NCBI GenBank assembly: GCA_005191425.1
Contig: SUPR01000001.1
Location: forward strand, 40,380 to 72,379
Length of the DNA: 32,000 nt
Reading direction: 5' to 3'
DNA from: Candidatus Helarchaeota ASGARD archaeon Hel_GB_B
Lineage (GTDB): Archaea; Asgardarchaeota; Lokiarchaeia; Helarchaeales; HEL-GB-B
Of the stretch, positions 4,142 to 18,617 are shown in pieces; position 1 is the first letter of the stretch; each line of letters starts with the position of its first letter. The position numbers were made by a program, and so were the translations under genes. The notes under the pieces are model-generated. The model was not told the DNA's origin and searched no databases. It saw only the letters and a program-made list of their open reading frames with translations.

Positions 4142-5167
4142 ATGAAGGAATTTAAATTCATTATTATAGGATTTGGGACTGTAGGTCGGTCTTTAGCTAA
4201 ATTGGTTGTTAAAAAAAATGAGCAATTTAAAAAGAAGTGGGGAATTAATCTCAAATGTGTTGCTATTTTTGAGTATAATGGCGCTTTTGTTGATGAAATA
4301 AATGGGCTCGATCTCAAGACCATAGTTGATTTGCCCCCAAATGAATTTAGTTCATCTCCAAATTGGAAAAATGGTTATCTTGCAAATGACCACTTAAATT
4401 CAATTGATAGTAATATAGTCGTTGAATTGACTAAAACCAATATTAAAGATGCAGAGCCGGCTTATACATATATTAAAACATCACTGCTCAATAATAGAGA
4501 TGTCGTGACTTCTAATAAAGGCCCATTATCATTATATTACCCAGAATTGATGAAAATAGTCAGCAGCAATAATAGACTGTTTAGGTTTGAAGCTTCTGTA
4601 GGGGGTATAATCCCAATTTTGGGGACTTATAAAAATTTGTTGCTGGCAAATAAAATAATAGCCATTTCAGGAATATTAAACGGGACATCTAATTACATTT
4701 TAACTAAAATGACACTTGAAAAAATACCATTTGATATCGCATTAAAAGAAGCTCAAGAAAATGGATATGCTGAAGCTGACCCTTCTTTAGACATTCAAGG
4801 TATTGATGCAGCCTCTAAGTTAGTAATCTTAGCAAATAGTATTTTAGGTTATGAATCCTCACTTTCAAATGTCAAAAGACAAGGGATTGATAAAATAACC
4901 CCTGAAGCAATAGAACTTGCAAGAGAAGAAAGATATGTAATCAAACATGTGGCAGTTGCAAGGGACGGAAAATTAGAAGTTGCGCCCAAATTAATTCCTG
5001 AAAATCATACCCTAAATATTAGTGGGACTAAAAACATTATCATATTAAAAACTGAAGAAGCTGGAGAAATTGTCCTTAGCGGAAGAGGAGCTGGCGGAAT
5101 TGAAGCAGCTTCAGCTGTACTCTCCGATATTTTGTATATTTGTAAAACAAGAAAAAAAGAAATATAA
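4142..5167 (+). CDS. hom: Homoserine dehydrogenase
   Basis: IIGFGTVG Rossmann motif, VVTSNKGP, FEASVGG.IP, GILNGTSNYIL, GYAEADP..D..G.DAA.K, G.GAGG.EAASAVLSD. Confidence 0.95.
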   Translation: MKEFKFIIIGFGTVGRSLAKLVVKKNEQFKKKWGINLKCVAIFEYNGAFVDEINGLDLKTIVDLPPNEFSSSPNWKNGYLANDHLNSIDSNIVVELTKTNIKDAEPAYTYIKTSLLNNRDVVTSNKGPLSLYYPELMKIVSSNNRLFRFEASVGGIIPILGTYKNLLLANKIIAISGILNGTSNYILTKMTLEKIPFDIALKEAQENGYAEADPSLDIQGIDAASKLVILANSILGYESSLSNVKRQGIDKITPEAIELAREERYVIKHVAVARDGKLEVAPKLIPENHTLNISGTKNIIILKTEEAGEIVLSGRGAGGIEAASAVLSDILYICKTRKKEI

Positions 5168-5182
5168 TTTAAAATTTATACT

Positions 5183-5590
5183 TTAAAATGGACTCTGTAG
5201 TGGATTATACCCAGTTAATCCTAATATGACATTATTTGTAATTACGATAAATAGAATTGTTAAGAAGGAAATTAAAACTGCTTTTTGCCACTCAATGTCC
5301 ATAAGCCAATAGGTCAGGAAAATCAGTATAAAAAAAGCAACATATGGACTTAGGTTCTGAAATAATTGAGTCATATAGGGAGGAATATAAATAGGTATCT
5401 GGTCTAGTGCCATTGCTAAATACGGGATTAATAATACAATGATAATTCCAAGTAATATAGAAACTGCAATTCGTCTTTTTGCTTTGTATTTGCCTGCAAT
5501 TATAAGAACAGATAAATACATAGCTAAAATAGCAATTACTATCATTACCGTCAAATATATTAAATTTACAATCCACTCTAATTGCATCAT
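5183..5590 (-). CDS. Hypothetical 4-TM membrane protein
   Basis: 135-aa hydrophobic ORF; AGGTG SD-like site upstream at ~5600-5604. Confidence 0.7.
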   Translation of the reverse strand: MMQLEWIVNLIYLTVMIVIAILAMYLSVLIIAGKYKAKRRIAVSILLGIIIVLLIPYLAMALDQIPIYIPPYMTQLFQNLSPYVAFFILIFLTYWLMDIEWQKAVLISFLTILFIVITNNVILGLTGYNPLQSPF

Positions 5591-5821
5591 AAACTTTTAC
5601 ACCTAAATTTAAATTTTAATATCAGTTATTAAAATTTTTTTTTAAAACGTTCAACACAATGTTTTAAAAATTCATATACAAATTTGGATTTAATTAGATT
5701 TTGAATATTCTTTTAAAAAAGATTATAGTAAATTTTAGTATTTTATAAATTATGAGAAAACTTTAAATTTTTAGTTAAAAAAAAGTTTCTTAACCATAAT
5801 AATAATAAAGGATTAATAAAA

Positions 5822-6400
5822 ATGGAAATTTTTGAGGTCTTAGATAGTGGAGAAACGCGCTTCTTGACAGTAAATACCGTTAAAGAAGCCCTTCGACCTG
5901 ATAAAGTAATTATTATTTTAGACCATGACAAAAAATCAGTTTATATTCACGTTGGTAAAAATGCTTCAACTCGTCTGAAGTTTTCAAGTGCGAGGTCTTC
6001 ACGGTCAATACTTCAAGAACGAAATTTGGCTTATAGAGTTAAGACTATTGATGAAGAGGATCTACCATCATGGTTTGAGAGTATTACCAATAAGATAGTT
6101 AGAGATAATATAAGGGCTGAACCCCCACCACTTGAAATTCTAAAAATATTAAGAAAAATAGAAAACGCAGAACCTATTGAAGGATATAAAAGTGAAGCTG
6201 CTATTGTTAAAAATAAATTTTATAATTTAGAAACTACAGCTACTACAATTATGGGACAAAACCATTCTATTGAAAAATTTAAAGAAGTCCGAGATCTACC
6301 TGAGGGTTTTTATGTATTACCAAATACATATAAAGCAAGACTAATCATCGAAAAAGGTAAAGTTGTGGGAATTGAACTATTAAAAGAACGACCTACTTAA
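5822..6400 (+). CDS. Single gelsolin-like domain plus C-terminal extra domain (Asgard 1DGelX-like)
   Basis: L.PDKVIIILDHDKKSVYIHVGKNAS.R.KF..A....I......V..IDE...P.WF fits the gelsolin fold pattern. The C-terminal part (GYKSEAAIV.NKFY...DLPEGFYVL...Y.ARLIIE.GKV..IELLK) resembles GelX domain X as I recall it. Confidence 0.7.
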   Translation: MEIFEVLDSGETRFLTVNTVKEALRPDKVIIILDHDKKSVYIHVGKNASTRLKFSSARSSRSILQERNLAYRVKTIDEEDLPSWFESITNKIVRDNIRAEPPPLEILKILRKIENAEPIEGYKSEAAIVKNKFYNLETTATTIMGQNHSIEKFKEVRDLPEGFYVLPNTYKARLIIEKGKVVGIELLKERPT

Positions 6401-6545
6401 GATTAATTTTTATGCCCTTTTTTAAAATTTATTAATTTATTTTGATATTTATTAAATTAAACAAATTTATACCCCAAACTAATGGGATTTATGGATTAAT
6501 TTTAATTTACTAATAATTGCCCAAGATTACATAAATTGAGAAATA

Positions 6546-7079
6546 ATGAGCGAAGAAATTTATAAATTTTTTGAGGAACTTGTCAGAGACTATAAAATTC
6601 TATTAGAATTAGTTCCAGTTAATAATAACGCTATAAATATAATTACCCAATATTTCCCGCTTAATTTCGAGGCTAATTTTATAATATCTGACACTGGAGA
6701 AGAATTTTTTATTAGAATCTCCCCAGAATCCAATGTAATAAAGAAAAGAAGAAATCCATTTTCTATCATGACTATTATTACGGATAAAAATACCTTATTA
6801 AAGATAATTAGAAGACAAACTTCAATATTACGCGAATTTAATTTTCAAAATTTACATATATCTAATTTAAAACAAGTTTATATGTATCGAATTATTTTAT
6901 TAGGGATGTTAATACAATCTAAAGCAGAATATGATAATAGAAGAAAAATTCTGCGGTTCTTACCAATTAAAATTATCAGAAATTTCTTGTTGATATTTTT
7001 AGAAGATAAATCATTTGTTCTTATTAAATTGATTTTAAAAAAATTAATTCCAAAAATTATGGGTATTCTAGTTAAATAA
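6546..7079 (+). CDS. Hypothetical protein, possibly divergent SCP2-like lipid-binding domain with basic amphipathic C-terminus
   Basis: The pattern NFIISDTGEEFFIRI......MTIITD..TLLKII....S is SCP2-like but weak; it lies next to a clearer SCP2 gene. Confidence 0.45.
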   Translation: MSEEIYKFFEELVRDYKILLELVPVNNNAINIITQYFPLNFEANFIISDTGEEFFIRISPESNVIKKRRNPFSIMTIITDKNTLLKIIRRQTSILREFNFQNLHISNLKQVYMYRIILLGMLIQSKAEYDNRRKILRFLPIKIIRNFLLIFLEDKSFVLIKLILKKLIPKIMGILVK

Positions 7080-7098
7080 AATAAGATGATTAATAAAA

Positions 7099-7491
7099 AT
7101 GAGTGAATTATTTAACAAAATAGAATTTTTCTGTCAAGCATACAAAAAGAATTCTAAAAAATTACTTAATTTTAAAATAGGGAGTATTTCTAACTATTAT
7201 CCCCAGGGAATTAAAGTTAATATTATAGTATTAGACAATAAAATTGAAAATTATACCCTGTTAATATCAGATACTTCTTGTAAAGTTGTAAAAGGATTTT
7301 CTTCATCCCAATTAAATTTATCAGCCCTACCAGATGTGTGGGACAAGATTTTTTCAGGTAAATACCGGGTAATTAAAGGAATTATGGAGGGTAAAATAAA
7401 AGTAAGGGGGATAAGGTCAATGGTCAGTCCGTTGATAATATTATCATCATTATTTTATTTATATTCGGAGGATTTTGATAATAATGACTAA
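7099..7491 (+). CDS. SCP2 sterol/lipid-binding domain protein
   Basis: C-terminal DVWDKIFSG....KGIMEGKIKVRG is the SCP2 signature. Confidence 0.7.
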   Translation: MSELFNKIEFFCQAYKKNSKKLLNFKIGSISNYYPQGIKVNIIVLDNKIENYTLLISDTSCKVVKGFSSSQLNLSALPDVWDKIFSGKYRVIKGIMEGKIKVRGIRSMVSPLIILSSLFYLYSEDFDNND

Positions 7492-8950
7492 AAATACAGT
7501 TGCTGAAGATATTGCAGAATTTGTAGTAAATTTGAAATATAAAGATATCCCCAACCGTATTATCAAAAAGGCAAAAGATCAAATATTAGGAGTAATTGCT
7601 GCAATTTATGCGGGCTCACTTACAGATGAAGGAAAAATAATAATTAATACAGTTAAACAATTTGGTGATAAAGAGGAATCAAGTTTAATACCTTCGGGAT
7701 TTAAAACTTCAGTAAGAAGTAGTGTATTATGTAATTCGAGCGTAGGAGTTGCTCTTGACTATGTAGATTATCTATTAAGTGGGCATACGGGAGTCTCGGC
7801 AGTTCCGGTCTCTCTTGCAGTCGGAGAATCATTGAATTCTACAGGAAAAGAAGTTATAACAGCTCAGATCATTGCAAATGAAATAGAAGGAAGATTAGGA
7901 ACAAGCGTATTTCTAGGGCCACAAAATGGACAATTATGGTCGTATATTCATTTAATTGGTGGAGCAGTAGCTGCTTCACGATTATTAGGTCTTAATGAAG
8001 ATCAAGTAGCTAACGCAATTGGAATTGCACTCGCCCAAAGCACATATACAATTTTTAGAGGTTATTTTGCAATGGCAAAACTTTTTGTAAGCGGACTCCC
8101 TGCCCAAATTGGAGTTCAAGCTGCTTATTTTGCAAAAAATGGCTTAAGAGGGGCTCATGATATCATTGAGCACCCATTGGGGTTCTGTAATTTAATGGCA
8201 GATATACCATTAAAATTTATTACTAATTCCGCATTGGGTAAAGCTTGGGTTACAGATACTCTCTGTTATAAAATTTATCCAGGTTGCGCTTATGTCGATG
8301 CTATTGCAGATTGTATTCTTGATTTACATAAAGAATTTGATATTAATTACAAGGAAATTAAGAGAGTTGAAGTATTCTCAAGTATTTTAACCACGGCGAT
8401 GGACGATTTTGCAGCACCATTTACTACGATAGATTCGCTAAAAAAAGAACAGACTCATGTAGCGCTAAATTTTACAGTACCTTATACAGTGGCAGCAACT
8501 CTTATAGATAAAGAATTGACACCACGACAATTTAAAAAAGAAAGATATTTGAACCCAGAAATACATAATCTTGCTAATAAAGTAAAAATAATACCAGATT
8601 CTAAAATTTCATCAGAAATCCTGGGTACTTTGCCAGCTATTAAAATTCCAAGCTTAAAAGAGATTATATCTGGAAAATATTCGTTAGCAGATATAAATTT
8701 AGATGATGTAACAGTTGCTTTTGCCGGCGCAGTAAAGATAATAATGAATAACGGAAAAAAATACTATAAAAAACAAAATATTCCTTATGGAGCTCCAGGA
8801 AATCCTTATGATTTAAAGAAAAAATTTACACAAGAAGCTATAAATATATTACCAAGCGAAAAAATAGACCCAGCAATTCGCGCTATAAATAATATTGAAG
8901 CCATCGAAAATATTGGTGATTTAATACAAAAAATTTGTTCTCAAATATAA
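7475..8950 (+). CDS. MmgE/PrpD family protein (start may be ATG ~7484)
   Basis: AKDQILG, ALDY.D...GH....VP.SLAVGE, GAVAASRLLGL..DQ.ANAIGIA, G..AAYFAKNG.RG, KIYPGC, P.GAPGNP. Confidence 0.9.
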   Translation: MIIMTKNTVAEDIAEFVVNLKYKDIPNRIIKKAKDQILGVIAAIYAGSLTDEGKIIINTVKQFGDKEESSLIPSGFKTSVRSSVLCNSSVGVALDYVDYLLSGHTGVSAVPVSLAVGESLNSTGKEVITAQIIANEIEGRLGTSVFLGPQNGQLWSYIHLIGGAVAASRLLGLNEDQVANAIGIALAQSTYTIFRGYFAMAKLFVSGLPAQIGVQAAYFAKNGLRGAHDIIEHPLGFCNLMADIPLKFITNSALGKAWVTDTLCYKIYPGCAYVDAIADCILDLHKEFDINYKEIKRVEVFSSILTTAMDDFAAPFTTIDSLKKEQTHVALNFTVPYTVAATLIDKELTPRQFKKERYLNPEIHNLANKVKIIPDSKISSEILGTLPAIKIPSLKEIISGKYSLADINLDDVTVAFAGAVKIIMNNGKKYYKKQNIPYGAPGNPYDLKKKFTQEAINILPSEKIDPAIRAINNIEAIENIGDLIQKICSQI

Positions 8951-9651
8951 TTATGCTCATTAACTTTTTACTCTATAAATATTTAAATTCATTTACCAAT
9001 GGTCCAACTATTATCCTATAATTTACTACTTGTTTATATTATTAAAGAGATTTCGAATGAATTTTCAATTTATTTTTCAATTATTAACAGCATTAATTTG
9101 TTGTTATTTTATTTATATTCAATTCATCTAAAAAATACAAATTTCTCGTCTATTAAAGCAAAATTTGTCAATTTTTATTGAATTAAAATTAATTGCACCT
9201 AACGAATGTAAATAAAAAATTTATATTAAAAATTCGAATTCTGTGGACTTTACCTAAGATAAATATCAATGATTAATATAGATAAAAATTAATATAATTA
9301 AATTATTTTTTACTTTTTTAGGATGTTCGACTTTTGTATAATTCTAATTTAGACTTTCAAATTTTATGAATACAATAAATTTTTAAGAAAAATATGGAAA
9401 AAAAAGGTGGTCAGGCATCTAAAAATTCAATTATATGAATTGAGGGATGAAATATGGCTAATTTCTTAATGGAGCCTGACCATATTTTAAATGGTCTAGA
9501 AACCAAAAATATAATAGTTATTAAGTTATAAAAAATTTTGTAAAATAGATTTTTATTTGTTTTTTTATACAAATTATAGACCAGAATAATTGAGCAATTA
9601 GTCCACAAAAATTTTTGAAGAATAGTAAATTTTTATCAATGTGAAACAATT

Positions 9652-10140
9652 ATGAGTATAAATAATAAAATAAAATATGACTTTAAGAATAAATCACTAG
9701 CTGATATCCTGCTTGACGAGCTAAAGTATCTAAGGTCAAGGACAGGTATTAGAGTAAGCATCATTTTATCTCAAAGTGGTAAAATACTGTCAATTCATGA
9801 GGATGCAGCATATGTGCCCGACCAATTAAGATATGGAGCAAGAAATCAACATATTGATAAAGAATATTTATCAAAATGGATTGTTTCTACTTCTAGGACT
9901 ATAGAATTCGTTTCAGAAAAAATGTTTACCGATGGAATAAAATTTATTATTTTAGAAGGAAATGATAAGAAAGAAGCAATAATAATGAATTATAAAGACC
10001 CAGATCCAGATATTTCCTTTATTTTAATGGGTTTATTAACAAAAGCTGGATCAATTGGACTTGGATATCAAGAAATAAAAGAGAGTTCTGAAAGAATAAA
10101 AGATATTTTAATAAGCTATAAAAATTATCAGAATTTATAA
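9652..10140 (+). CDS. Roadblock/LC7 (MglB/LAMTOR-like) domain protein
   Basis: Helix, then GIRVSIILSQSGKIL; central helix; IKFIILEG...AII; FILMGL....SIGL...EIK...ERI..IL: roadblock topology with an insertion. Confidence 0.7.
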   Translation: MSINNKIKYDFKNKSLADILLDELKYLRSRTGIRVSIILSQSGKILSIHEDAAYVPDQLRYGARNQHIDKEYLSKWIVSTSRTIEFVSEKMFTDGIKFIILEGNDKKEAIIMNYKDPDPDISFILMGLLTKAGSIGLGYQEIKESSERIKDILISYKNYQNL

Positions 10141-10320
10141 TATAATTAGGTATTATTAAAGAATAGTGATATTTTTATTAAGTATATTGAGAAAATAAAT
10201 ATATGAATTAATGACAAGATTTTTATGATGTTTTAATAAAATCTTAAATTTCAATTATAAATCGTTTTAGTATAAAGATTAACCAAATCAAATTTCAGAA
10301 AGTTCAGGAGTTTAGAAATT

Positions 10321-10713
10321 TTGTCAGAATTTGCTAGATTTATGGAATCTATTTCATCAGAAGCAACTGAAACAAAGATAAATGAACTTTCTGATGTCCT
10401 TAATAAAGTACTTCAGATAATAACAAAAGCACTTGATGATTTAACTGTAAAGATGGTCGGACTTGAAGAAGAAATATATTTTTTAGAGCAAAAGATTGAA
10501 AATATCCAGAGGAGGTCAAAGAATATTCAAGCATCACTGTCCAGACAAGAGGTAAGCCAGAAGGTAGTGACTAATAAAGAAACTAAACCACCAACTACCC
10601 AAACACAGATTAATCAACCTCAAAAACAAACCACAGAAAATGTAAAACCTGTACCCCTTAGATCTGCAGTAAATACTGAACTTAAAGATCTATTTAAAAA
10701 ATTGAAAAAATAA
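10321..10713 (+). CDS. Coiled-coil / low-complexity linker / C-terminal amphipathic helix protein (paralog 1)
   Basis: Heptads over aa ~18-75, T/Q/P-rich linker, ends RSAVNTELKDLFKKLKK; TTG start. Confidence 0.75.
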   Translation: MSEFARFMESISSEATETKINELSDVLNKVLQIITKALDDLTVKMVGLEEEIYFLEQKIENIQRRSKNIQASLSRQEVSQKVVTNKETKPPTTQTQINQPQKQTTENVKPVPLRSAVNTELKDLFKKLKK

Positions 10714-11156
10714 TGATGTTCAAAATGAGTGATAATTTTTTTAATATTTTAATGAAATCATCTACGGCTTCAATTGATGAAAAAATAAAGAAACTAAGCA
10801 TGGTATTAGACAAAATTATGGAAGTTGCAATCAAGTCAATAAGTGGAATTGAAAATCAAGTTCAAACTTTTGACGCAATATTAGCAGAAATTAGAAATAA
10901 AATTGAAGGACTAGAAGCTAATTTGACCGTTTTGGAACAGAAACAAGAAGCAATGGCAAAATCAAGTATTGGTAGCAGTACAACATTAGAAACGCCAATG
11001 CCCTCCCAATCTTCTCGTCCAGTTGAAACAAAACCTATAAATAAACCATTGGCACCTCCTGTATCAGCATCAACTCCAAAACCAACTCGGCCAATTAACC
11101 CCAGAGCTGAATTACAATCAGAATTAAAAGCACTTTTTTCAAAAATGAAGCGTTAA
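10713..11156 (+). CDS. Coiled-coil / Pro-Ser-Thr linker / C-terminal amphipathic helix protein (paralog 2)
   Basis: Shares KI..LS.VL.K...K.......KIE with paralog 1; ends RAELQSELKALFSKMKR; TAATG stop/start overlap. Confidence 0.75.
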   Translation: MMFKMSDNFFNILMKSSTASIDEKIKKLSMVLDKIMEVAIKSISGIENQVQTFDAILAEIRNKIEGLEANLTVLEQKQEAMAKSSIGSSTTLETPMPSQSSRPVETKPINKPLAPPVSASTPKPTRPINPRAELQSELKALFSKMKR

Positions 11157-11167
11157 AAAAAGAAGTT

Positions 11168-12079
11168 TTATTTATTAAAAAAATTTAATATTTCAGTTGC
11201 ACCACTTTTTAATGCAAGCCCTGCTAATTGAGTAGAGGAATTAGGGCCAATTTGAGTTATTATTAAAAATCCGCTTTTTTTGTTAGGAATTTTTACTGGC
11301 ATTAAAATTAATTTGCCTCGTTCACCATCAATTGTTGAGAAGGTCTTACCAATATTAAAAGCATCGCCCACAGAATTTGCAGACAATGCCACTGTTGATG
11401 CAATTAATGAACCAATATTGACATCAATTTCATGTGGAAAAGTCGAGAATAAAACACGCCCCTCAGTGGTAGAAATTAATGCAGCTATTGCTCCAGCTTT
11501 TGTTTTTATAGTTTCCATGATTTTATTTAGAGCTTTCATTGTTTCTTCATCATATAAAGGGACATTTTCTTTAGGTCCAATTAAAAATTTGCACATTTTA
11601 TCTCCTTTGGCAATACATTCAGTTTCATTTATCTCAACTTCAGAATCGAATAATACACTAGCCATACCTTTTAATATTCCTTGAATACCAAAACATGATG
11701 CTATTCCTTCTTCGTAAGCTTCAGGGGAGTTTTGAATCTCAATATATATTTTTTTATTATCTTCATCTATATTTATATTCCCCAATGTTGCACCCCAGCC
11801 TCCTCGTTCTAAGCTTCTTAAGATAAACCTAAACGCGGTATTTTTATCTGCTTTTTTCTTATCTATAACAAGTTCCATAAATCTTTTACCAATATCTTCT
11901 CCAATTTTAATATAAATTGGCCGAAGACCCTCTTTTAAAAATTTATTTGCAGTGAGATACATCTGTCTAAAATGTTCAATATGAAGTATAATTATTCTGA
12001 AATTGAAGCCTTTAATTTCTCCTTTAAAAATAGAAAAATCTTTGAAAGTAAAATTTTTAGTCTCTTCTAACAAGCCCAT
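11168..12079 (-). CDS. V4R (TRAPPC3/Bet3-related) domain fused to C-terminal roadblock domain
   Basis: GWG, NSPEA, SC..I.GIL.G......V...ETECIAKGD..CKF (V4R); then AALISTTEGRVL...I.GERGKLILMP...LII...P......GL (roadblock). Confidence 0.8.
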   Translation of the reverse strand: MGLLEETKNFTFKDFSIFKGEIKGFNFRIIILHIEHFRQMYLTANKFLKEGLRPIYIKIGEDIGKRFMELVIDKKKADKNTAFRFILRSLERGGWGATLGNINIDEDNKKIYIEIQNSPEAYEEGIASCFGIQGILKGMASVLFDSEVEINETECIAKGDKMCKFLIGPKENVPLYDEETMKALNKIMETIKTKAGAIAALISTTEGRVLFSTFPHEIDVNIGSLIASTVALSANSVGDAFNIGKTFSTIDGERGKLILMPVKIPNKKSGFLIITQIGPNSSTQLAGLALKSGATEILNFFNK

Positions 12080-12142
12080 ATTTTACACCTTTTATTATTA
12101 AAAAAGATAAATCATTTAAAATAAAAATAGAGTTAGATAGAT

Positions 12143-15100
12143 TTAAACTCTTGTAATTTTGGTAGATGAAGCCATCCAAATGGGTCCAATTATTTCGTGA
12201 ATTAACGCTACCAAAGTTTCTTGTTGAGATACTAATGCAGTTAATTGTGTTAGGTCGTATTTTTCAGAATATGGTGCAATTAATACTTCTTCACCGTCTC
12301 TACCAACTGCAAATAGGTTCATCTCAGGTCTTTGCCTTATTTGTACATTTCCTAATTCTAGCAACTCTCTAACCTGGTCTTTTGCTTCGTTCAAGATACG
12401 AGATGCAACAATTATTCTTATTCTTCGACTAGCGGATTTAATAGTTTCTAGAGGCAGGTCACTAAAATCAGGAGCTACAATAGATACAGTTGATTTTGTT
12501 CTCATAAGAATGTCCCGGATATATTCTTTTATTGCCTCAACACCTACTAATGGCCAAGTAAGTTCGCCGGATTTCGCTAGTATATTAGTAGTTTCCTGCC
12601 ATACTGCTCTTAGAAGTTGACTTACTTTTAAGGTTTCACCTTCAGCTTCTCTGAATGTAAATGCCGCATCTTTATTAGTGTTTGTAAGTCGCTCTGTTAA
12701 TATAGAATCGGTTTCATCTAATTTTGCAGCTAATTTTTCATTTAATGAATTTGCGTTTGATTCATAGTCAGTTTGGTGTTGGCTAGCTAATTGTAGTAAA
12801 TCAGTTTCTAGTTTTGCAGCATCTGCTTGGAATCCTGCGGCATGGTTGGAAATTGTTTCTTTACATTCCTCATAAGTTTTGGTAGTCAATTCTTTAATTT
12901 GTGCTAAATATTTATTATCAATTTCGTTTATATCGTTTTTTATTTGTGAAAATCCTTCATTCATAGTATTAGATATTTGCTCTTGGACATCATTTGCCAT
13001 TTTATTAACTCGTTCGTTATCATTGTTGACAAAATCTTTAATAGTATTTTTCATTTGATTTAATGCTTCGTGGCCACGGTTTTTAACATCATCTACTCGT
13101 TTAATTTCGGTCTGTACTATATTTGCGACATCATCTTTTTTCTCGTCTATCGATTTATTCATATTAGCTGTTATTTCATCTAATTCTCCTAACTTATTAT
13201 CATCAATTTCTTGAAGATTTTTCTTATGCTCCTGGATTATATTTGCAAGCAATGAAATAGATTTATTACGAATTTCATGTGATTGTGATTCAACATTACC
13301 TACTCTTAAGTCTAATGCTTTATAAAATTCATCACGCATTGAATCAAGTTCGTTTTGATATTCTTTGATTCTATCATCTAGAGTATCAGAAAGAACTTGC
13401 TCCAATTTACTTGTATCTTCTTGTAAAAGTTTATTTTGGCCGGAAATCTTGGATAAAAATTCGTCTTTCAATTTATTTAGTAAGTCGCTGTATCTTTTTA
13501 TGACATCATCTGATTTACTAACTATCGAGTCCTTCATTTTGTAAAAATCTAATTCTATTGCTTCTACTTGAGAATTAATTATTTCTTGAGACTGGTCACC
13601 ATATTTAGAAGCATTATCCTTGAACCAATTTAAGTTATTATTATTATATTTGTCAAAAACAGCAGATACATTTTCCTTTTTAGTATTTATCGATGAAATT
13701 TCGGAACTGATAATATCAGCAAGATTTTCAGTAGTATCGTTTGACCATTTGTCTAAAGATTCATTTACCTTATCTTGATAGTCTTTAATATTTACTTCTA
13801 ACTCTTTAACTAAATTTTTTGATGTTTCATTTATGGTATTAATTAATTGTTCATTAGCCCCGCGTTCTTCCTTAATTTTTTCATTTAATTTTCTAATAGC
13901 ATTATCAATAATTTCCTTAATTTCAGGTCTGTCTTTACTATATTCTTTTAATTCATTTTCCAGTTCTTTTTCCCAGTCACGGAGATTATGAATTGTTTTT
14001 GTTATTTCCCCTGATGAAACATTTTTAATTGAGTCGACCTTGGTCTGAATTTCGTCATGTAAAGTTTTCGATAAAGATTTTATCTTATTTTTTTCTTCAG
14101 ATTTCAGATTTTTAATTGAATTATTTGCTTTTGATTTTAAATCATCCAAATTTTTGTTTAAATTAGAAATACTTGCATCTAATTCTTGATTGAATTCACT
14201 CCTTGCGGAATTTATTTCATCTGTTAATTGAGCTAAACGCTCGTCTAAATTCGAAGTTAATGTTTTTTCCAAATCAGTTGACCCGGCTTGAAGCCTTTTA
14301 ATTTGACTTGTAAATTTGTCAAGAAATTCCTGTTGTATATCACCAACTAATTGCTTGAACCTTGAAATTAAATCATTTGTAAAATTTGCTACATCATTTG
14401 TAAATTGATAGAATTCGGTATCTCGTTTAGTAATTTCATTATTAAACAATTTTTCAGCAGTTTCACGAAAATTGCTGGCTCTATTTTTAAACCATTCCAT
14501 ATGATTATTTTGTGAATTTTGAATTTCAGACCTTAATTCCTTATCTTTTTCCCAAGTAGCTTCAATTTCCTTTTTTATCATTTCTAAGAATTCGTCTGAT
14601 AAATTTTTATGCCATTCATCATAGGCAGTGTAATTTTGATTGCGATTACTATTAATAATATCATTTACTCCTTTGACATATTCGACCATTATTCGATCAG
14701 TGAATTCATCAAATACGCCATCAATGCGAGTATTAAGTAGATTTAATCCTTCTACATTTTCGGCAGAGACTTTATCGAGAATTTCATTGCCGTAATTGTC
14801 CAAGACATTATCAATATTATTATTTAAATTATTTAATTCATTTTTATGTTCATCGGCTGTAGTATCATGTATATTTTTAGTTTTTTGCATTAATTCATTA
14901 TATCTATTTTCCAGGTCATTAGCCAAAGTGTCTTCATATTCATGAATTAATTTATTGTGGTCATCATTACGCTGATTAAAATTGTTAGTTATCTCTTCTT
15001 TTCTCGATTCCACATCAGAATTTAATTTTATTACTTGATTTGTAATTAAATTAGAAATTCCATCTCTAGCATTAATTGTATCTTTGGCAAATTGTTCTAA

Positions 15101-15514
15101 TTGAGTATTTATAGCCTCTGCTACTTGATCTTTAAGAGTTATGACCTCTTGCTTTAAGTCATTAATATGTTTATTAATGTTAGAATCGAAATCCTCTCGT
15201 TGTTTGATAGTTTTTTCTCTATATTGATCCAAAAATTGAGTAAAGGCAGAATAAGGGACGACTGGCATATATCTATTTATATCTTTAGCTGCTGAACCTA
15301 TTGCAACAGCAAGGTTATTATCTAAAAATTTTTGTATTGTATTTCTCGCTTCTTCCATTGAGATATTTGCCAATGCCGCTAAAGATGATTCAGTTATATA
15401 TCCTTTTGCATATAATGCGACAAAGGCTCTTGCTTCAGCTTCTGTTAATGTAACACCTCGTTCTTTAAAAGTATCTATAATTATTTGAAACATATTTTGG
15501 TTTTGTACACTCAT
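12143..15514 (-). CDS. TrmB-family architecture (N-terminal wHTH, C-terminal PLD-like effector domain) with ~880-aa helical insert
   Basis: N-terminus LTEAEARAFVAL...GYIT..SLA....IS......I.KFLD..L...RY.PV.P; C-terminus W.L.G.EAI..YI.D.L.R.KSTV.IVAP...RD.EEVLIAP; the middle is Pro-poor and helical. Confidence 0.8.
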   Translation of the reverse strand: MSVQNQNMFQIIIDTFKERGVTLTEAEARAFVALYAKGYITESSLAALANISMEEARNTIQKFLDNNLAVAIGSAAKDINRYMPVVPYSAFTQFLDQYREKTIKQREDFDSNINKHINDLKQEVITLKDQVAEAINTQLEQFAKDTINARDGISNLITNQVIKLNSDVESRKEEITNNFNQRNDDHNKLIHEYEDTLANDLENRYNELMQKTKNIHDTTADEHKNELNNLNNNIDNVLDNYGNEILDKVSAENVEGLNLLNTRIDGVFDEFTDRIMVEYVKGVNDIINSNRNQNYTAYDEWHKNLSDEFLEMIKKEIEATWEKDKELRSEIQNSQNNHMEWFKNRASNFRETAEKLFNNEITKRDTEFYQFTNDVANFTNDLISRFKQLVGDIQQEFLDKFTSQIKRLQAGSTDLEKTLTSNLDERLAQLTDEINSARSEFNQELDASISNLNKNLDDLKSKANNSIKNLKSEEKNKIKSLSKTLHDEIQTKVDSIKNVSSGEITKTIHNLRDWEKELENELKEYSKDRPEIKEIIDNAIRKLNEKIKEERGANEQLINTINETSKNLVKELEVNIKDYQDKVNESLDKWSNDTTENLADIISSEISSINTKKENVSAVFDKYNNNNLNWFKDNASKYGDQSQEIINSQVEAIELDFYKMKDSIVSKSDDVIKRYSDLLNKLKDEFLSKISGQNKLLQEDTSKLEQVLSDTLDDRIKEYQNELDSMRDEFYKALDLRVGNVESQSHEIRNKSISLLANIIQEHKKNLQEIDDNKLGELDEITANMNKSIDEKKDDVANIVQTEIKRVDDVKNRGHEALNQMKNTIKDFVNNDNERVNKMANDVQEQISNTMNEGFSQIKNDINEIDNKYLAQIKELTTKTYEECKETISNHAAGFQADAAKLETDLLQLASQHQTDYESNANSLNEKLAAKLDETDSILTERLTNTNKDAAFTFREAEGETLKVSQLLRAVWQETTNILAKSGELTWPLVGVEAIKEYIRDILMRTKSTVSIVAPDFSDLPLETIKSASRRIRIIVASRILNEAKDQVRELLELGNVQIRQRPEMNLFAVGRDGEEVLIAPYSEKYDLTQLTALVSQQETLVALIHEIIGPIWMASSTKITRV

Positions 15515-15523
15515 TTTATATTT

Positions 15524-15528
15524 CCTCC
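15524..15528 (-). promoter_or_regulatory. Shine-Dalgarno GGAGG between the ATPase-TPR stop and the TrmB-like start
   Basis: Minus strand reads TAAGGAGGAAATATAAAATG, supporting co-transcription. Confidence 0.7.
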
Positions 15529-17412
15529 TTATGAACTACCTCCTTCTATGGCTACTTTTGTTCTATTTAACTTTTCTACAAAATCAGCCAACCCTAAATT
15601 TTGGAATTTTTGAATGGAATCCTCCAAAATGTCCTTGGCTTTATCTACTTGCCCTTGAATTGCATATACATTTGATAAGTTAGTATAAAATTGCCATGCA
15701 TAAAAATATTCATTATTTGAAAAGAATGTCTTTGCTGCTTTTGTTAGTACATTTATTACTTCATTTGTGGCATTTATTTCTTCGAAATACTTTTTAGCTT
15801 GAGTATAGTTTGCTCTGGCTAATGGATATGCCTTGTCCTTAATGCAATCTTCGGCTTTTTCGACAAATAAATTAGCCAATTTATTTATTAATTCTTTCAC
15901 TTTTTCGGGTTCTCCTAAGCTTCTATTTACATCAATTGCATTAATGAGGACATCCCTGCCATAATCTAATAACCCTTTTTCGAGGAACTTTTCTGTAAAA
16001 CTTTCCAAAATATTTGCGGCTTTTTCTTTTTCATTAACTTTTACGAGACTATCCCCTGCAAGTAATATAAACTTAAAAACTTCATTATAATATCCATAAT
16101 TATAATAATTCATAGCTATATCATAATAACCATTTGCGATATGCTCAACTGCAGATACCAGTCCCGCTGTTAGAGAATCAGATCTTAGACGTTCTAATTC
16201 TTCGAATTGAAAATCTTCCAATAATCTTCCATTTTCAGCCAAATTCATTGCAACTTTAATTAGACCTCTTGCTTGCGCATCTACTGCAATATCACCCAAA
16301 CTACTTCGTAAATAAATCCAAAAACTGTCTAATGTAATATAATAAACACTATCTTCTTTACTCAAATATTTTCCAATCATTTTTTCAAGTATTGGTTTGA
16401 TATCTTCACTTTTTGCGCCAATCGAACGAGCTATTATATCAATATCTGCAAAATTTGCATTTTCCATTGCAAATGACTGTAATATTTTTCTTTCGTCCTC
16501 AGTTAATTCTTTAAGTTCTCGTCCAAAACCTTCTTTAACTCCGCCTTCAGCTTTAAACCATACATCTTTACCTAGTTCTCTTGTATCGCCTCTATTTTCA
16601 TACAACCATCCGCCATTATAAACTAAATAAAGAGGAATTCCACCACTATGTCTTAATAAATTCTCTTTTATCTCTTCACTAAATTTAATTCCTGCTGCAT
16701 CTGCTCTTTTATCAAGTAATTCTATTGCATCAGCATTATTTAAAGTTGGTAAACCTATTTCGTGAAAATCCTCTAATACATAACGAACTTTTGGATAATA
16801 CTTTTCCCAAACAGACATCAAAAAGAGAACAGGGAGGTTTGGATTTTTTACATCCGTTTTTATAGCGTCTACTATTGCTTTTAATACATCAAATGCATTG
16901 TCATGATTTAATATTATAAATCTTTCAACAAGATTAGAAACAATTAGAATACCTTTTTTATTGAATTTATTACCTTGAATATTTTTAATAATTTTAGGTA
17001 ATTTTTTAACAATTTTTTTCAAAAAAGAATCAATATACTTACTCATATCAGGGATTTCATAGCTGCTTTTTAAAAGCGGAGCTTTTTTACCTGGTTTTGT
17101 AATAGGTTTCTTTTTGTCCACGGGTTTCGTTATTTCATCTAATTCATTGCTTATTACATCGAAATAACCTTCAATATTTATCAATGGTACATCATATCTA
17201 ATTACCAGAAAACCATTTGATGAAGCTATGGACTCGATTTGTTTTAAAAAACTTCTTCTACCAATTCCTTCGCGTCCATGTAATATTAAGCCATGTGAAA
17301 TATTTTCTCGGTCAGCTATTTTTTGCAAAATTCCTGAAAATTGATCTATTTCTCTTTTTCTTCCCACAAAGAATTTCGCTGGGCATGTTTCTAATTTAAA
17401 TGGGTCCGTCAT
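15529..17412 (-). CDS. STAND-like AAA ATPase (degenerate Walker A/B) - winged helix - TPR/SNAP-like repeat protein
   Basis: FVGRKREI, LILHGREGIGRRSFL, I.LPTL...DA.ELL..RA, SGGIPLYL, L..DER.IL; C-terminal helical repeats with A..YY/AKKYF patterns. Confidence 0.8.
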   Translation of the reverse strand: MTDPFKLETCPAKFFVGRKREIDQFSGILQKIADRENISHGLILHGREGIGRRSFLKQIESIASSNGFLVIRYDVPLINIEGYFDVISNELDEITKPVDKKKPITKPGKKAPLLKSSYEIPDMSKYIDSFLKKIVKKLPKIIKNIQGNKFNKKGILIVSNLVERFIILNHDNAFDVLKAIVDAIKTDVKNPNLPVLFLMSVWEKYYPKVRYVLEDFHEIGLPTLNNADAIELLDKRADAAGIKFSEEIKENLLRHSGGIPLYLVYNGGWLYENRGDTRELGKDVWFKAEGGVKEGFGRELKELTEDERKILQSFAMENANFADIDIIARSIGAKSEDIKPILEKMIGKYLSKEDSVYYITLDSFWIYLRSSLGDIAVDAQARGLIKVAMNLAENGRLLEDFQFEELERLRSDSLTAGLVSAVEHIANGYYDIAMNYYNYGYYNEVFKFILLAGDSLVKVNEKEKAANILESFTEKFLEKGLLDYGRDVLINAIDVNRSLGEPEKVKELINKLANLFVEKAEDCIKDKAYPLARANYTQAKKYFEEINATNEVINVLTKAAKTFFSNNEYFYAWQFYTNLSNVYAIQGQVDKAKDILEDSIQKFQNLGLADFVEKLNRTKVAIEGGSS

Positions 17413-17948: not shown

Positions 17949-18617
17949 TTAAAAAAAGGTGTTAATGAAAGAAATTATCGAATAACCATTGAATTGGAGA
18001 TATACTTCAATAATTGAGATTATTAATATGATAAGAAGAAAAATGTAATTATTAAAAATTCGCCAAATCCGATCATTTGTATAAATTATTTCACTATTTT
18101 TTGGATTTTTAATATTTAAAATTTTACATAAACCCATTCCTAAGAATAATCCCGAAAATATACTTATAATCGCAAATAAGGCATCTTCAGAATAATCAAA
18201 TATACCTACTAAAAACCGGTAATTCACTATTAGGTCAAATAAAACTAACATTATAATTAATGTACAGACTCCAGAAATGATTACTGCTATAATAGAATTT
18301 TTTGATAATTGGATTATAGGTTGCACCATAAAAACTATGCAAATTAAAATTAATAGAATGTACGGAATGAATTCATAATATTGAGCAAAAATTAACGGTA
18401 CACCTAATGATATTGTAGAAATTATATCCAATATAGTAAAAAATAAAAACATTTCACCTGCTAAAAAATAAAATAAAGACCCCCAGCTTAATTTTGGTTT
18501 TTCATCTGATTTTAGACCCCAGAAATTAAAACTACTAATAACTTTCGGTATAAAAAATAAAATTATCCCAAATAAATAATAAGAAATTCTTAAATCAATC
18601 ATTTTTACAATCTCCAT
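17949..18617 (-). CDS. Hypothetical multi-pass membrane protein
   Basis: 222-aa ORF with about 6 hydrophobic segments; overlaps the 3' end of the phosphoesterase gene by 13 bp. Confidence 0.7.
   Translation of the reverse strand: MEIVKMIDLRISYYLFGIILFFIPKVISSFNFWGLKSDEKPKLSWGSLFYFLAGEMFLFFTILDIISTISLGVPLIFAQYYEFIPYILLILICIVFMVQPIIQLSKNSIIAVIISGVCTLIIMLVLFDLIVNYRFLVGIFDYSEDALFAIISIFSGLFLGMGLCKILNIKNPKNSEIIYTNDRIWRIFNNYIFLLIILIISIIEVYLQFNGYSIISFINTFF

Follow-up and report, generated by a model that had tools for sequence, protein, structure and literature searches.

The window analyzed here, a stretch of 32,000 nucleotides from a Candidatus Helarchaeota genome, encodes a protein of 1123 residues (P0001) in which two TrmB-like end domains are held apart in sequence by a single helical rod. 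This raises the question of how a regulator-type protein is built around so long a helix, and of whether its two ends lie far apart or side by side. A preliminary description had pictured a dimeric rod or a helical bundle that links DNA binding to a distant sensor. P0001 and its full-length orthologues (38-80% identity) were compared by profile, periodicity, repeat and structure-prediction analyses, and the features located are listed in Table 1.

Table 1. Features of P0001 and of the two adjoining genes, in coordinates of the window.
Feature	Residues	Nucleotides	Strand	Basis
Gene for TrmBL2-like rod protein P0001	1123 aa	12143..15514	(-)	ORF list, translation, orthologues
TrmB-type winged helix-turn-helix (wHTH)	~20-95	15230..15457	(-)	TrmBL2 best PDB match of 6-orthologue profile
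Helical rod, hendecad (11/3)	88-979	12578..15253	(-)	Hydrophobic periodicity; AF2 all helix
Duplication copy 1	~237-528	13931..14806	(-)	Ungapped core aa 299-481 = nt 14072-14620
Duplication copy 2	~535-827	13034..13912	(-)	Ungapped core aa 588-770 = nt 13205-13753
Central hinge, with P530	526-532	13919..13939	(-)	Rod midpoint and copy junction; AF2 helix break
N-arm break (putative elbow)	~266-278	14681..14719	(-)	AF2 break 266-273; phase shift; paired-indel site
C-arm break (putative elbow)	~786-792	13139..13159	(-)	AF2 break 786-790; mirror partner of N-arm break
TrmBL2/TrmB-type PLD-like domain	980-1123	12146..12577	(-)	AF2 model and Foldseek
Upstream operon partner, AAA_16/STAND-like NTPase with TPR/SNAP-like C-terminus	627 aa	15529..17412	(-)	Pfam
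Downstream co-directional V4R + Roadblock/LC7 gene	303 aa	11168..12079	(-)	Pfam

P0001 is of the TrmBL2 type by domain homology

We used profile and structure comparisons to examine the two ends of P0001. An N-terminal profile built from six orthologues found TrmBL2 as its best PDB match (5bpd/5box, E 1e-3, chain residues 10-96). P0001 scored 15-18 bits with Pfam TrmB (PF01978), whose threshold is 25.6 bits, and all six orthologues were matched below this threshold (best E 2.3e-5); paralogues from the same genome that carry the same C-domain family scored above it, at 28.3 and 34.7 bits. All orthologues shared the motif R81-Y82-x-P84-V-V-P87 without change, with the helix starting at residue 88; the TrmB family has a Y-x-P-V-x-P motif and, directly after the wing, an amphipathic coiled-coil helix that serves in dimerization. 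At the other end, a profile of the C-domain family compared with PDB sequences also placed TrmBL2 first (E 2.7e-4, collinear with chain residues 79-228), and the end of the rod aligned with TrmBL2 residues 79-117. A C-domain model, predicted by AF2 from a 120-sequence alignment (pLDDT 89.5), had TrmBL2 5bpd as its top Foldseek match (E 4.7e-11, identity ~15-18%); the effector-binding domain (EBD) of TrmB, 2f5t, was matched with an rmsd of 2.7 over 140 columns, and PLD-fold proteins came next. Pfam Regulator_TrmB matched the C-domain with only its positions 6-132 of 233 and, like the N-terminal Pfam match, was below its gathering threshold. The HxK(x)4D motif of PLD enzymes was absent anywhere in P0001, and the C-domain residues conserved in the family were R1005, K1007, P1015, N1056, R1072, D1073, E1075 and E1076. 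The protein ends after the PLD-like subdomain, without the ~70-aa sugar-binding subdomain, which is the trait of the TrmBL2 subtype.

Taken together, these domain homologies indicate that P0001 is a TrmBL2-type protein, in which a TrmB wHTH is followed by a coiled-coil helix and then by a PLD-like domain that lacks the sugar-binding subdomain, and in which the pairing helix has grown from ~40 to ~890 residues. The preliminary description had proposed a TrmB architecture with a wHTH and a PLD-like domain at the ends and a coiled-coil helix lengthened into a rod, and each of these proposals was borne out, with TrmBL2 the top match for both ends. Its distant sensor was left unsupported, since the sugar-binding subdomain is missing, as in TrmBL2.

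TrmBL2 (PF0496 / TK0471; PDB 5bpd, 5bpi, 5box, 5bqt) is a chromatin protein of Thermococcales, which coats DNA as a stiff filament that stalls SMC as a roadblock (PMC11840125) and is without the sugar-binding part (PMC4158304). It shares with P0001 the order of wHTH, helix and PLD-like domain but is 264 residues long, with a coiled-coil helix of ~40 residues, whereas the helix of P0001 is hendecad-based and internally duplicated. The two differ also in the recognition helix, where Tyr50 of Pyrococcus furiosus TrmB/TrmBL2 is important in DNA recognition (PMC4158304). This tyrosine is absent from P0001, in which R57-N58 aligned with the Y-D pair of TrmBL2 in a HMMER alignment; the equivalent column holds R, E or Q in the orthologues and is highly variable across the family. 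The sugar-responsive regulators TrmB, TrmBL1 and Tgr (PDB 3qph, 2f5t) resemble P0001 in the wHTH, the amphipathic coiled-coil helix and the PLD-like first EBD subdomain, but P0001 is without their C-terminal beta-barrel sugar-binding subdomain and its rod is ~20 times longer. DNA binding by P0001 is predicted.

The rod is an acidic hendecad helix

The rod of P0001 displayed a hydrophobic period of 3.66 (power 8.4; shuffle maximum 2.3), and no heptad signal (period 3.5) was detected by this periodicity analysis; the choice between heptad and hendecad, which had been put forward as a check, thus fell to the 11/3 hendecad. Hendecad phase was constant within the blocks 96-235, 280-505 and 525-945 and shifted at residues 240-280. 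The hydrophobic stripe was narrow, with large L/I/F residues at 3-4 of 11 positions, and the net charge of the rod was -55. Among the 891 rod residues only one proline was found, in 'DRPE' as previously noted, although it is residue 530 and not ~529. A whole-protein AF2 model from six sequences, all helix at low confidence (pLDDT 56.5, pTM 0.31), was used solely for secondary structure and break positions; the breaks, likewise of low confidence, were at 266-273, 526-532 and 786-790, symmetric about residue 529.

An apolipoprotein-, perilipin- or LEA-like 11-mer helix, which would lie on lipid surfaces and couple membranes or lipid bodies to DNA, was considered in view of the Pfam Apolipoprotein match (E 1e-16, 61.6 bits) and the 11- and 22-residue self-offsets and 11/3 periodicity of the rod, an amphipathic periodicity common to apolipoproteins A-I, A-IV and E (PF01442) and other 11-mer repeat proteins. 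However, the match falls short of the 90 bits that Pfam requires, hydrophobic residues form no more than a narrow face, no basic belt is present at the interface of this strongly acidic rod, and a lone proline differs from 22-mers punctuated by proline. We consider a lipid-surface role exceedingly improbable, and the apolipoprotein-like bundle proposed earlier fails by the face, proline pattern and Pfam score. A match to the tail of ZorA, of the anti-phage Zorya system, was rejected as well (29 bits against an NCBIfam cut-off of 250); it was confined to the coiled-coil tail, outside the MotA-like membrane part.

The rod contains an old internal duplication

Identity of the rod with itself was highest at an offset of 289, followed by 22, 30 and 11. 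When residues 96-530 were aligned with 531-985 by the Smith-Waterman method, 234-528 paired with 532-827 (score 324; shuffles 98 +/- 15; z 15), the split of the halves at the midpoint before alignment biasing the copy junction towards the midpoint. An ungapped core, in which 299-481 matches 588-770 and the offset is precisely 289, gave window scores of 139-166 (null 55 +/- 8), and windows free of the split supported the duplication only for ~247-481, at offsets of 289-298. The flanks outside both copies were 149 and 152 residues. All six residue pairs quoted for this duplication in the preliminary description were present at offset 289. Relative to shuffles, z was 15-19 in P0001 and 10-23 across the orthologue group, and the duplication was kept in eight orthologues (38-80% identity) at an offset of 289 or 290. 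In addition, contigs of independent metagenome runs spanned both copies with no joints or indels. An assembly artefact, against which the earlier claim was to be checked, is ruled out by the common offset in the orthologues and by these contigs. Thus, the results show that the 289-residue duplication is real and old.

Large tandem duplications with a junction at the rod midpoint were also found in other lineages (P0069, U=290; P0039/P0042, U~680). In P0004 and P0005, ungapped diagonals continued past residue 530 and hinted at a partial third copy in the flanks, but this was rejected, as the window matches do not fit. Mapping of the repeat unit onto shorter relatives in search of a pre-duplication form gave no reliable assignment, because rods align almost anywhere (z 4-12) through generic hendecad similarity; a search for shorter proteins with the P0001 C-domain returned only fragments.

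Mirrored indels indicate a probable antiparallel pairing of the rod halves

Insertions and deletions in the rod were found to occur in mirrored pairs. P0008, P0010 and P0012 carried an indel of 8 aa at 271-278, always together with one of 7 aa at 786-792, and P0009 was missing 20 aa across 258-286 and 18 aa across 787-814, a further 12 and 11 aa at the same mirrored sites compared to the other carriers. The sums of the paired positions (271+792 = 1063 and 278+786 = 1064) place a dyad at ~531.5. P530 lies within 4 residues of the rod midpoint (-0.01 of the half-length away), and the hinge was always P or G in the orthologue group of P0001 (KDxPE, GEN or GEG). Several other family members had proline clusters exactly at their midpoint, and the pair P0057/P0061 differed in length by 22 residues (2 x 11) at position 516, the midpoint being 500. 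Taken together, the mirror-symmetric paired indels, the midpoint proline and the equal flanks, described here for the first time as a sign of such an arrangement, indicate that the two halves probably pair antiparallel about residue ~531. Copy 1 would thus pack on copy 2. When local hendecad amplitude in one arm was correlated with its mirror image in the other, the proposed register, i + j = 1061, did not stand out (r 0.04); the highest value was at i + j = 961 (r 0.5, ~2 SD among autocorrelated trials). Complex prediction of the two head-proximal arm pieces with their heads (residues 1-233 with 828-1123) scored 0.30 (mark 0.32), a value that speaks neither for nor against pairing.

These findings bear on a parallel, in-register dimeric coiled coil of ~130 nm, with the wHTH pair at one end and the effector pair at the other, which might act, for example, as a chromosome-to-membrane tether. 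The amphipathic stripe along the whole rod would suit such a dimer, and many regulators dimerize via parallel coiled coils. A parallel dimer nonetheless leaves the paired mirror indels, the midpoint proline and the equal flanks unexplained and runs counter to the parent TrmB family, in which the coiled-coil helices are antiparallel; for a membrane tether, neither transmembrane nor lipid-binding features were observed, and the rod carries a strong acidic charge. Parallel pairing is, in our estimation, quite improbable. The dimeric rod first envisaged to link the wHTH to a sensor therefore stands as a rod but not as a simple parallel separation of ~130 nm, given that the mirrored indels and midpoint hinge would place the wHTH and C-domain together, as they are in TrmB, either in a cis hairpin or in a trans dimer. 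The roles first suggested for it, as a membrane tether, condensing protein or filament, are hypothetical.

The antiparallel arrangement could be a hairpin of ~65 nm or a double-headed antiparallel dimer of ~130 nm. In the latter, an essentially straight helix of ~890 residues would pair over its full length with that of a second chain, as if the domain-swapped TrmB dimer had been lengthened. Each end would bear one composite head, formed by the wHTH of one chain and the C-domain of the other, and the rod could bridge two segments of DNA while keeping the distance between them fixed. Mirrored indels, midpoint symmetry and equal flanks are predicted equally well by this homodimer, with which the mirror indels and midpoint hinge fit no less than with the hairpin. 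Moreover, the coiled-coil helices of TrmB pair antiparallel in trans (F81/I91', F84/L88') in a domain-swapped dimer (PMC4158304). Pro/Gly was not significantly enriched at the rod midpoint across the family (36 observed vs 30.5 expected), and 14 of 37 members were without either residue there; these counts rule out a universal hairpin loop, so the hairpin is not general. By contrast, a helix-breaking P or G is kept at the midpoint throughout the orthologue group of P0001, AF2 breaks the helix there (at low confidence), and the midpoint proline clusters of several other members likewise speak against a straight helix. We regard the extended homodimer as possible but rather unlikely for P0001, and tentatively favor the hairpin over pairing in trans.

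Neighboring genes and the Asgard family

The rod gene is separated by 14 nt from the upstream NTPase gene, and this neighbor was kept at orthologue loci (39-47% identity) and in close relatives. Its P-loop is degenerate in the P0001 clade, with the Walker A Lys and Walker B Asp lost, whereas the orthologous NTPase at locus L001 retains a canonical P-loop; the NTPase was absent beside distant family members at the loci examined. The protein encoded downstream matched Pfam V4R (1.3e-11) and Robl_LC7 (7.8e-6), and its gene was in the same position in close relatives; at the orthologue locus L001 a V4R gene was 2.2 kb away on the opposite strand.

Of 151 Asgard genomes sampled, 146 contained the C-domain family; its rods were of very diverse lengths, which were fixed within each orthologue group. 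Among 345 representative clusters the C-domain was C-terminal in nearly all, and proteins reached 1907 aa. P0001 has the traits of this family, namely a wHTH, a hendecad rod whose length varies (nearly every rod has a period of 3.66-3.68) and the C-domain signature TW...RxK...P...N...RDxEE..L.AP. Every named member carries no annotation beyond 'hypothetical' or 'HTH domain-containing', and literature searches on Asgard TrmB, coiled-coil, apolipoprotein and hendecad proteins found no description of the family.

A cytoskeletal or filament-forming coiled coil, with vestigial TrmB-like ends that have lost DNA binding, would be in keeping with the non-conserved Tyr50 position, with two short same-genome paralogues that have the C-domain and a coiled coil but no wHTH, and with neighbors of roadblock, V4R and GTPase type, which are not DNA-related. 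It is at odds with the wHTH, which is conserved throughout the family together with the R-Y of the wing and the PxxP motif, and with some paralogues that adjoin genes for Orc1/Cdc6 or for DNA ligase, SSB and RNase HII. We judge it very improbable.

A proposed DNA-anchored arm and its implications

The explanation that we hold to be probable, if only modestly so, is that P0001 is a TrmBL2-type protein with an ~890-residue hendecad rod, antiparallel halves and a dyad-centered duplication, favored as a ~65 nm hairpin and a putative DNA-anchored arm. The halves would pair about a dyad at ~531, where the midpoint of the rod, its sole proline and the junction of the copies coincide, in the same antiparallel sense as the short coiled-coil helices of TrmB. 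With the tandem duplication centered on this dyad, copy 1 in the N-arm would pack against copy 2 in the C-arm, and the unit-on-unit antiparallel interface of the ancestor would be kept while the rod lengthens by one unit. Most likely the arm would be an intramolecular hairpin with elbows at ~270 and ~788, which would bring the wHTH and C-domain back into one TrmBL2-like head. It may be an acidic arm, anchored to the nucleoid or to DNA, that serves as a spacer or scaffold, and may work with the co-transcribed STAND-like NTPase in the P0001 orthologue group and with the V4R-roadblock protein in close relatives.

The arms of SMC, Rad50 and MukB provide an analogy only: like the arm proposed here, they are long and antiparallel, with a central apex, an elbow, termini brought together and paired indels in both arm halves. 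P0001, however, is without an ABC ATPase head, hinge or zinc-hook domain, and its rod is built on hendecads where theirs is based on heptads; the two are unrelated in sequence and fold, and the NTPase here is a separate, STAND-like protein.

Few archaeal chromatin proteins have a known role in architecture, and TrmBL2 is one of them. If the heads of the family bind DNA, its members would form rigid, acidic arms or bridges on the nucleoid, each with a defined length; to our knowledge, no element of this kind has been described in prokaryotic chromatin. The locus also illustrates how such rods may lengthen in large steps and yet stay in register: with a tandem duplication centered on the dyad, the two copies would pack against one another. 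More broadly, and at present unlikely, Asgard archaea may possess a near-universal set of multi-paralogue, DNA-anchored 'molecular rulers', with TrmBL2-derived heads and antiparallel hendecad rods whose lengths arise via dyad-centered duplications. If so, arms of ~30 to 130 nm each, controlled by STAND NTPases and by GTPase modules of the roadblock/Rag type, would organize the nucleoid or tether it to other structures in the cell. The lineage that is closest to eukaryotes would then possess a chromatin-scaffold system unmatched in other prokaryotes.

Internal duplication of the P0001 rod

The low G+C window (~28%) was found to encode a protein of 1123 residues (P0001), with MAG proteins from Helarchaeota and Lokiarchaeota as its nearest database relatives. 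The residue pairs that the preliminary description had placed at an offset of 289 were all found in the P0001 translation, and 289 was the top self-identity offset within the rod, with 22, 30 and 11 next in rank. By local alignment of residues 96-530 to 531-985, residues 234-528 were matched to 532-827 (score 324 compared to 98 ± 15 for shuffles). Split-free windows of 100 residues revealed an ungapped core (299-481 and 588-770) at exactly 289, with scores of 139-166 compared to a null of 55 ± 8. In seven orthologues (38-80% identity to P0001), the strongest internal diagonal likewise had an offset of 289 or 290; thus, the duplication is old. An assembly artefact was ruled out as its source by two contigs from independent metagenome runs (X1 and X2), which span both copies with no joints or indels. 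Taken together, shuffle-tested alignments, the shared offset in orthologues and the independent contigs confirmed the duplication.

Coordinates of the P0001 gene, its neighbours and selected relatives
Feature	Locus	Coordinates	Strand	Comment
P0001 gene	window	12143-15514	-	1123 aa
Partner NTPase	window	15529-17412	-	GREGIGRRS compared to GRPGIGK[TS] in deeper orthologues
222-aa ORF	window	17949-18617		no Pfam match
Contig X1	window	12000-14507
Contig X2	window	12819-15700
1246-aa paralogue	L013 (G000:C114)	9405-13145	-	Pfam TrmB above threshold
Orc1/Cdc6 gene	L013 (G000:C114)	14167-15468	-
857-aa paralogue	L014 (G000:C120)	6129-8702	+
Gtr1/RagA-Arf-type small GTPase gene	L014 (G000:C120)	4834-5769	+
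401-aa paralogue	L015	7536-8741	-	C-domain + coiled coil, no recognisable wHTH
388-aa paralogue	L016	6946-8112	-	C-domain + coiled coil, no recognisable wHTH
Neighbourhood of P0039 (1792 aa)	L005	12392-16433
Roadblock/LC7 genes	L017	2273-3547
Roadblock/LC7 genes	L018	1316-3184

End domains and nature of the rod

Evidence for the end domains from the sequence of P0001 by itself was weak, with matches to Pfam TrmB and Regulator_TrmB/FilR1_middle all under threshold. By use of an N-terminal profile of six orthologues, TrmBL2 ranked first among solved structures with E 1e-3; the matched part (TrmBL2 chain residues 10-96) runs from the wHTH through the wing into the first turns of the next helix. 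When 1.84 billion representatives were searched with a C-domain profile, 345 clusters were recovered, and for a 120-sequence alignment drawn from them the top solved structure was again TrmBL2 (chain 79-228, E 2.7e-4), followed by TrmB. The AF2 model based on this alignment was confident (pLDDT 89.5), and it was matched most closely in fold by TrmBL2, at E 4.7e-11, and by 2f5t, the effector domain of TrmB (rmsd 2.7 Å, 140 columns), with the PLD-fold proteins F13, FAM83B, NucT and Zucchini ranked lower; no HKD motif was found in P0001. The chain stops after the PLD-like subdomain as in TrmBL2, which is without the sugar-binding part of TrmB (PMC4158304). The start and end of the rod aligned with the start and end of the TrmBL2 CC helix; based on these collinear matches, the rod is an expanded CC helix. 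The Tyr50-Asp51 pair of the recognition helix, a defining trait of TrmB, was absent in P0001, where it aligned to R57-N58 in a column that varies across the family. Binding of DNA by P0001 is a prediction only.

The rod had a hydrophobic period of 3.66 (11/3) with a power of 8.4 compared to a shuffle maximum of 2.3, and no heptad signal (period 3.5) was detected in it. Within each of three blocks (96-235, 280-505 and 525-945), hendecad phase was steady. Large residues form the hydrophobic stripe, which occupies only 3-4 of 11 angular positions; net charge was -55, and P530 was the sole proline among 891 residues. As read from sequence, these features are those of a hendecad coiled coil and not those of a lipid-surface helix. 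Matches to Pfam Apolipoprotein (61.6 bits, threshold 90) and NCBIfam ZorA-tail (29 bits, cut-off 250) were sub-threshold and echo the 11/3 periodicity, not membership of those families.

Proposed antiparallel arrangement of the rod

That the rod halves pair antiparallel about residue ~531 is suggested by four observations. The midpoint of the rod (residues 88-979) is 533.5, within four residues of P530. Orthologue indels occurred as mirror pairs: P0008, P0010 and P0012 were missing 8 residues at 271-278 plus 7 at 786-792, and P0009 was missing 20 across 258-286 plus 18 across 787-814. Since 271+792 and 278+786 give 1063-1064, the dyad is at ~531.5. A low-confidence AF2 model had helix breaks at 266-273, 526-532 and 786-790, which divide the rod into helices of 178, 252, 253 and 189 residues, with 529 as the centre of symmetry. 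The CC helices of TrmB are themselves antiparallel in a domain-swapped dimer (F81/I91', F84/L88'; PMC4158304).

Pairing at i + j ~ 1063 places copy 1 (~237-528) opposite copy 2 (~535-827), with flanks of 149 and 152 residues; in other lineages the same pattern was found in P0069 (unit of 290) and in P0039/P0042 (unit of ~680, junction 0-14 residues off midpoint); the halves were split at the midpoint before alignment, which biases the junction to the midpoint, and split-free support spans only ~247-481. P0057 and P0061 differed by one 22-residue (2 × 11) insertion, at position 516 compared to a midpoint of 500. We read the duplication as a tandem event centred on the dyad of an antiparallel rod that pairs with itself; such an event would make the rod one unit longer and preserve the ancestral unit-on-unit interface.

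This symmetry does not distinguish an intramolecular hairpin of ~65 nm, toward which we lean slightly, from an extended antiparallel homodimer in trans of ~130 nm with one composite head per end. Midpoint Pro/Gly was absent in 14 of 37 long family members and not enriched family-wide, consistent with the homodimer. By contrast, a Pro or Gly was kept at the midpoint throughout the P0001 orthologue group and Pro clustered there in several other members, which favours a hinge. We regard the homodimer as less likely than the hairpin. The preliminary description was borne out in assigning P0001 to the TrmB/TrmBL2 kind and in its duplication, but it had pictured a long dimeric rod, and a parallel dimer of this kind is improbable given the signs of antiparallel symmetry.

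Family distribution and paralogues

The C-domain was found at the C-terminus of proteins of ~350 to 1907 residues, nearly all with a rod period of 3.66-3.68. Named members were all from Asgard MAGs (Atabey-, Hod-, Frey-, Sigyn-, Prometh-, Hel- and Lokiarchaeota) and annotated as hypothetical or HTH domain-containing. C-domain matches were detected in 146 of 151 sampled genomes of the phylum (1-6 each, open frames up to 1921 aa). In other lineages, the rods (P0058, P0046, P0061, P0057, P0068 and P0024) consisted of short tandem repeats with offsets at exact multiples of 11 (44, 55, 66, 77, 88, 132 and 176), the 88-residue repeat of P0058 running through almost its entire 1006-residue rod.

Beside P0001, Hel_GB_B encodes paralogues of 1246, 857, 401 and 388 residues, the first two exceeding the Pfam TrmB threshold. 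The wHTH-less shorter pair may act with the long forms, as partners without a head or as caps.

Gene neighbourhood

The P0001 gene is preceded, with a 14-nt gap, by a gene for a 627-aa AAA_16/TPR NTPase. Orthologues of 39-47% identity showed the same pairing, as did close relatives, and in the latter the rod gene is in turn followed by a V4R(+roadblock) gene; at the loci inspected, no such NTPase neighboured distant family members. The Walker A lysine and Walker B aspartate were lost in the NTPase of the P0001 clade (VSN at the Walker B position), whereas deeper orthologues were canonical (ID/VD). The same losses were found at two loci of close relatives, L017 and L018 (GIGRRS/GIGRKS, ISN). 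Judged by these motifs, the NTPase of this clade is probably a pseudo-NTPase without hydrolytic activity. At L017 and L018, which belong to the closest relatives, two or three Roadblock/LC7 (LAMTOR-like) genes immediately precede the NTPase-rod-V4R block, a slot taken in the window by the 222-aa ORF and a metallophosphatase.

An Orc1/Cdc6 gene, of a type often marking replication origins in archaea, is two genes away from the 1246-aa paralogue. The small GTPase gene at L014 is directly upstream of the 857-aa paralogue, and an Arf/Rag-like GTPase lies <7 kb from P0039. Genes of DNA replication and repair flank P0039, namely DNA ligase, an SSB-like OB-fold gene and RNase HII.

Relation to known systems

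TrmBL2 is the nearest known protein to P0001. In Thermococcus it forms stiff nucleoprotein filaments, with SMC stalled at domain boundaries (PMC11840125). P0001 is similar to TrmBL2 in domain order and folds but differs in its helix (~20-fold longer, hendecad and internally duplicated), in the missing Tyr50 and in gene context; the resemblance of its rod to SMC/Rad50 arms is analogy only. A literature search found no paper describing a TrmBL2-like Asgard rod family. P0001 belongs to the TrmB/TrmBL2 kind, and its locus contributes a dyad-centred tandem duplication, mirror-indel evidence in the orthologue group and a degenerate NTPase partner.
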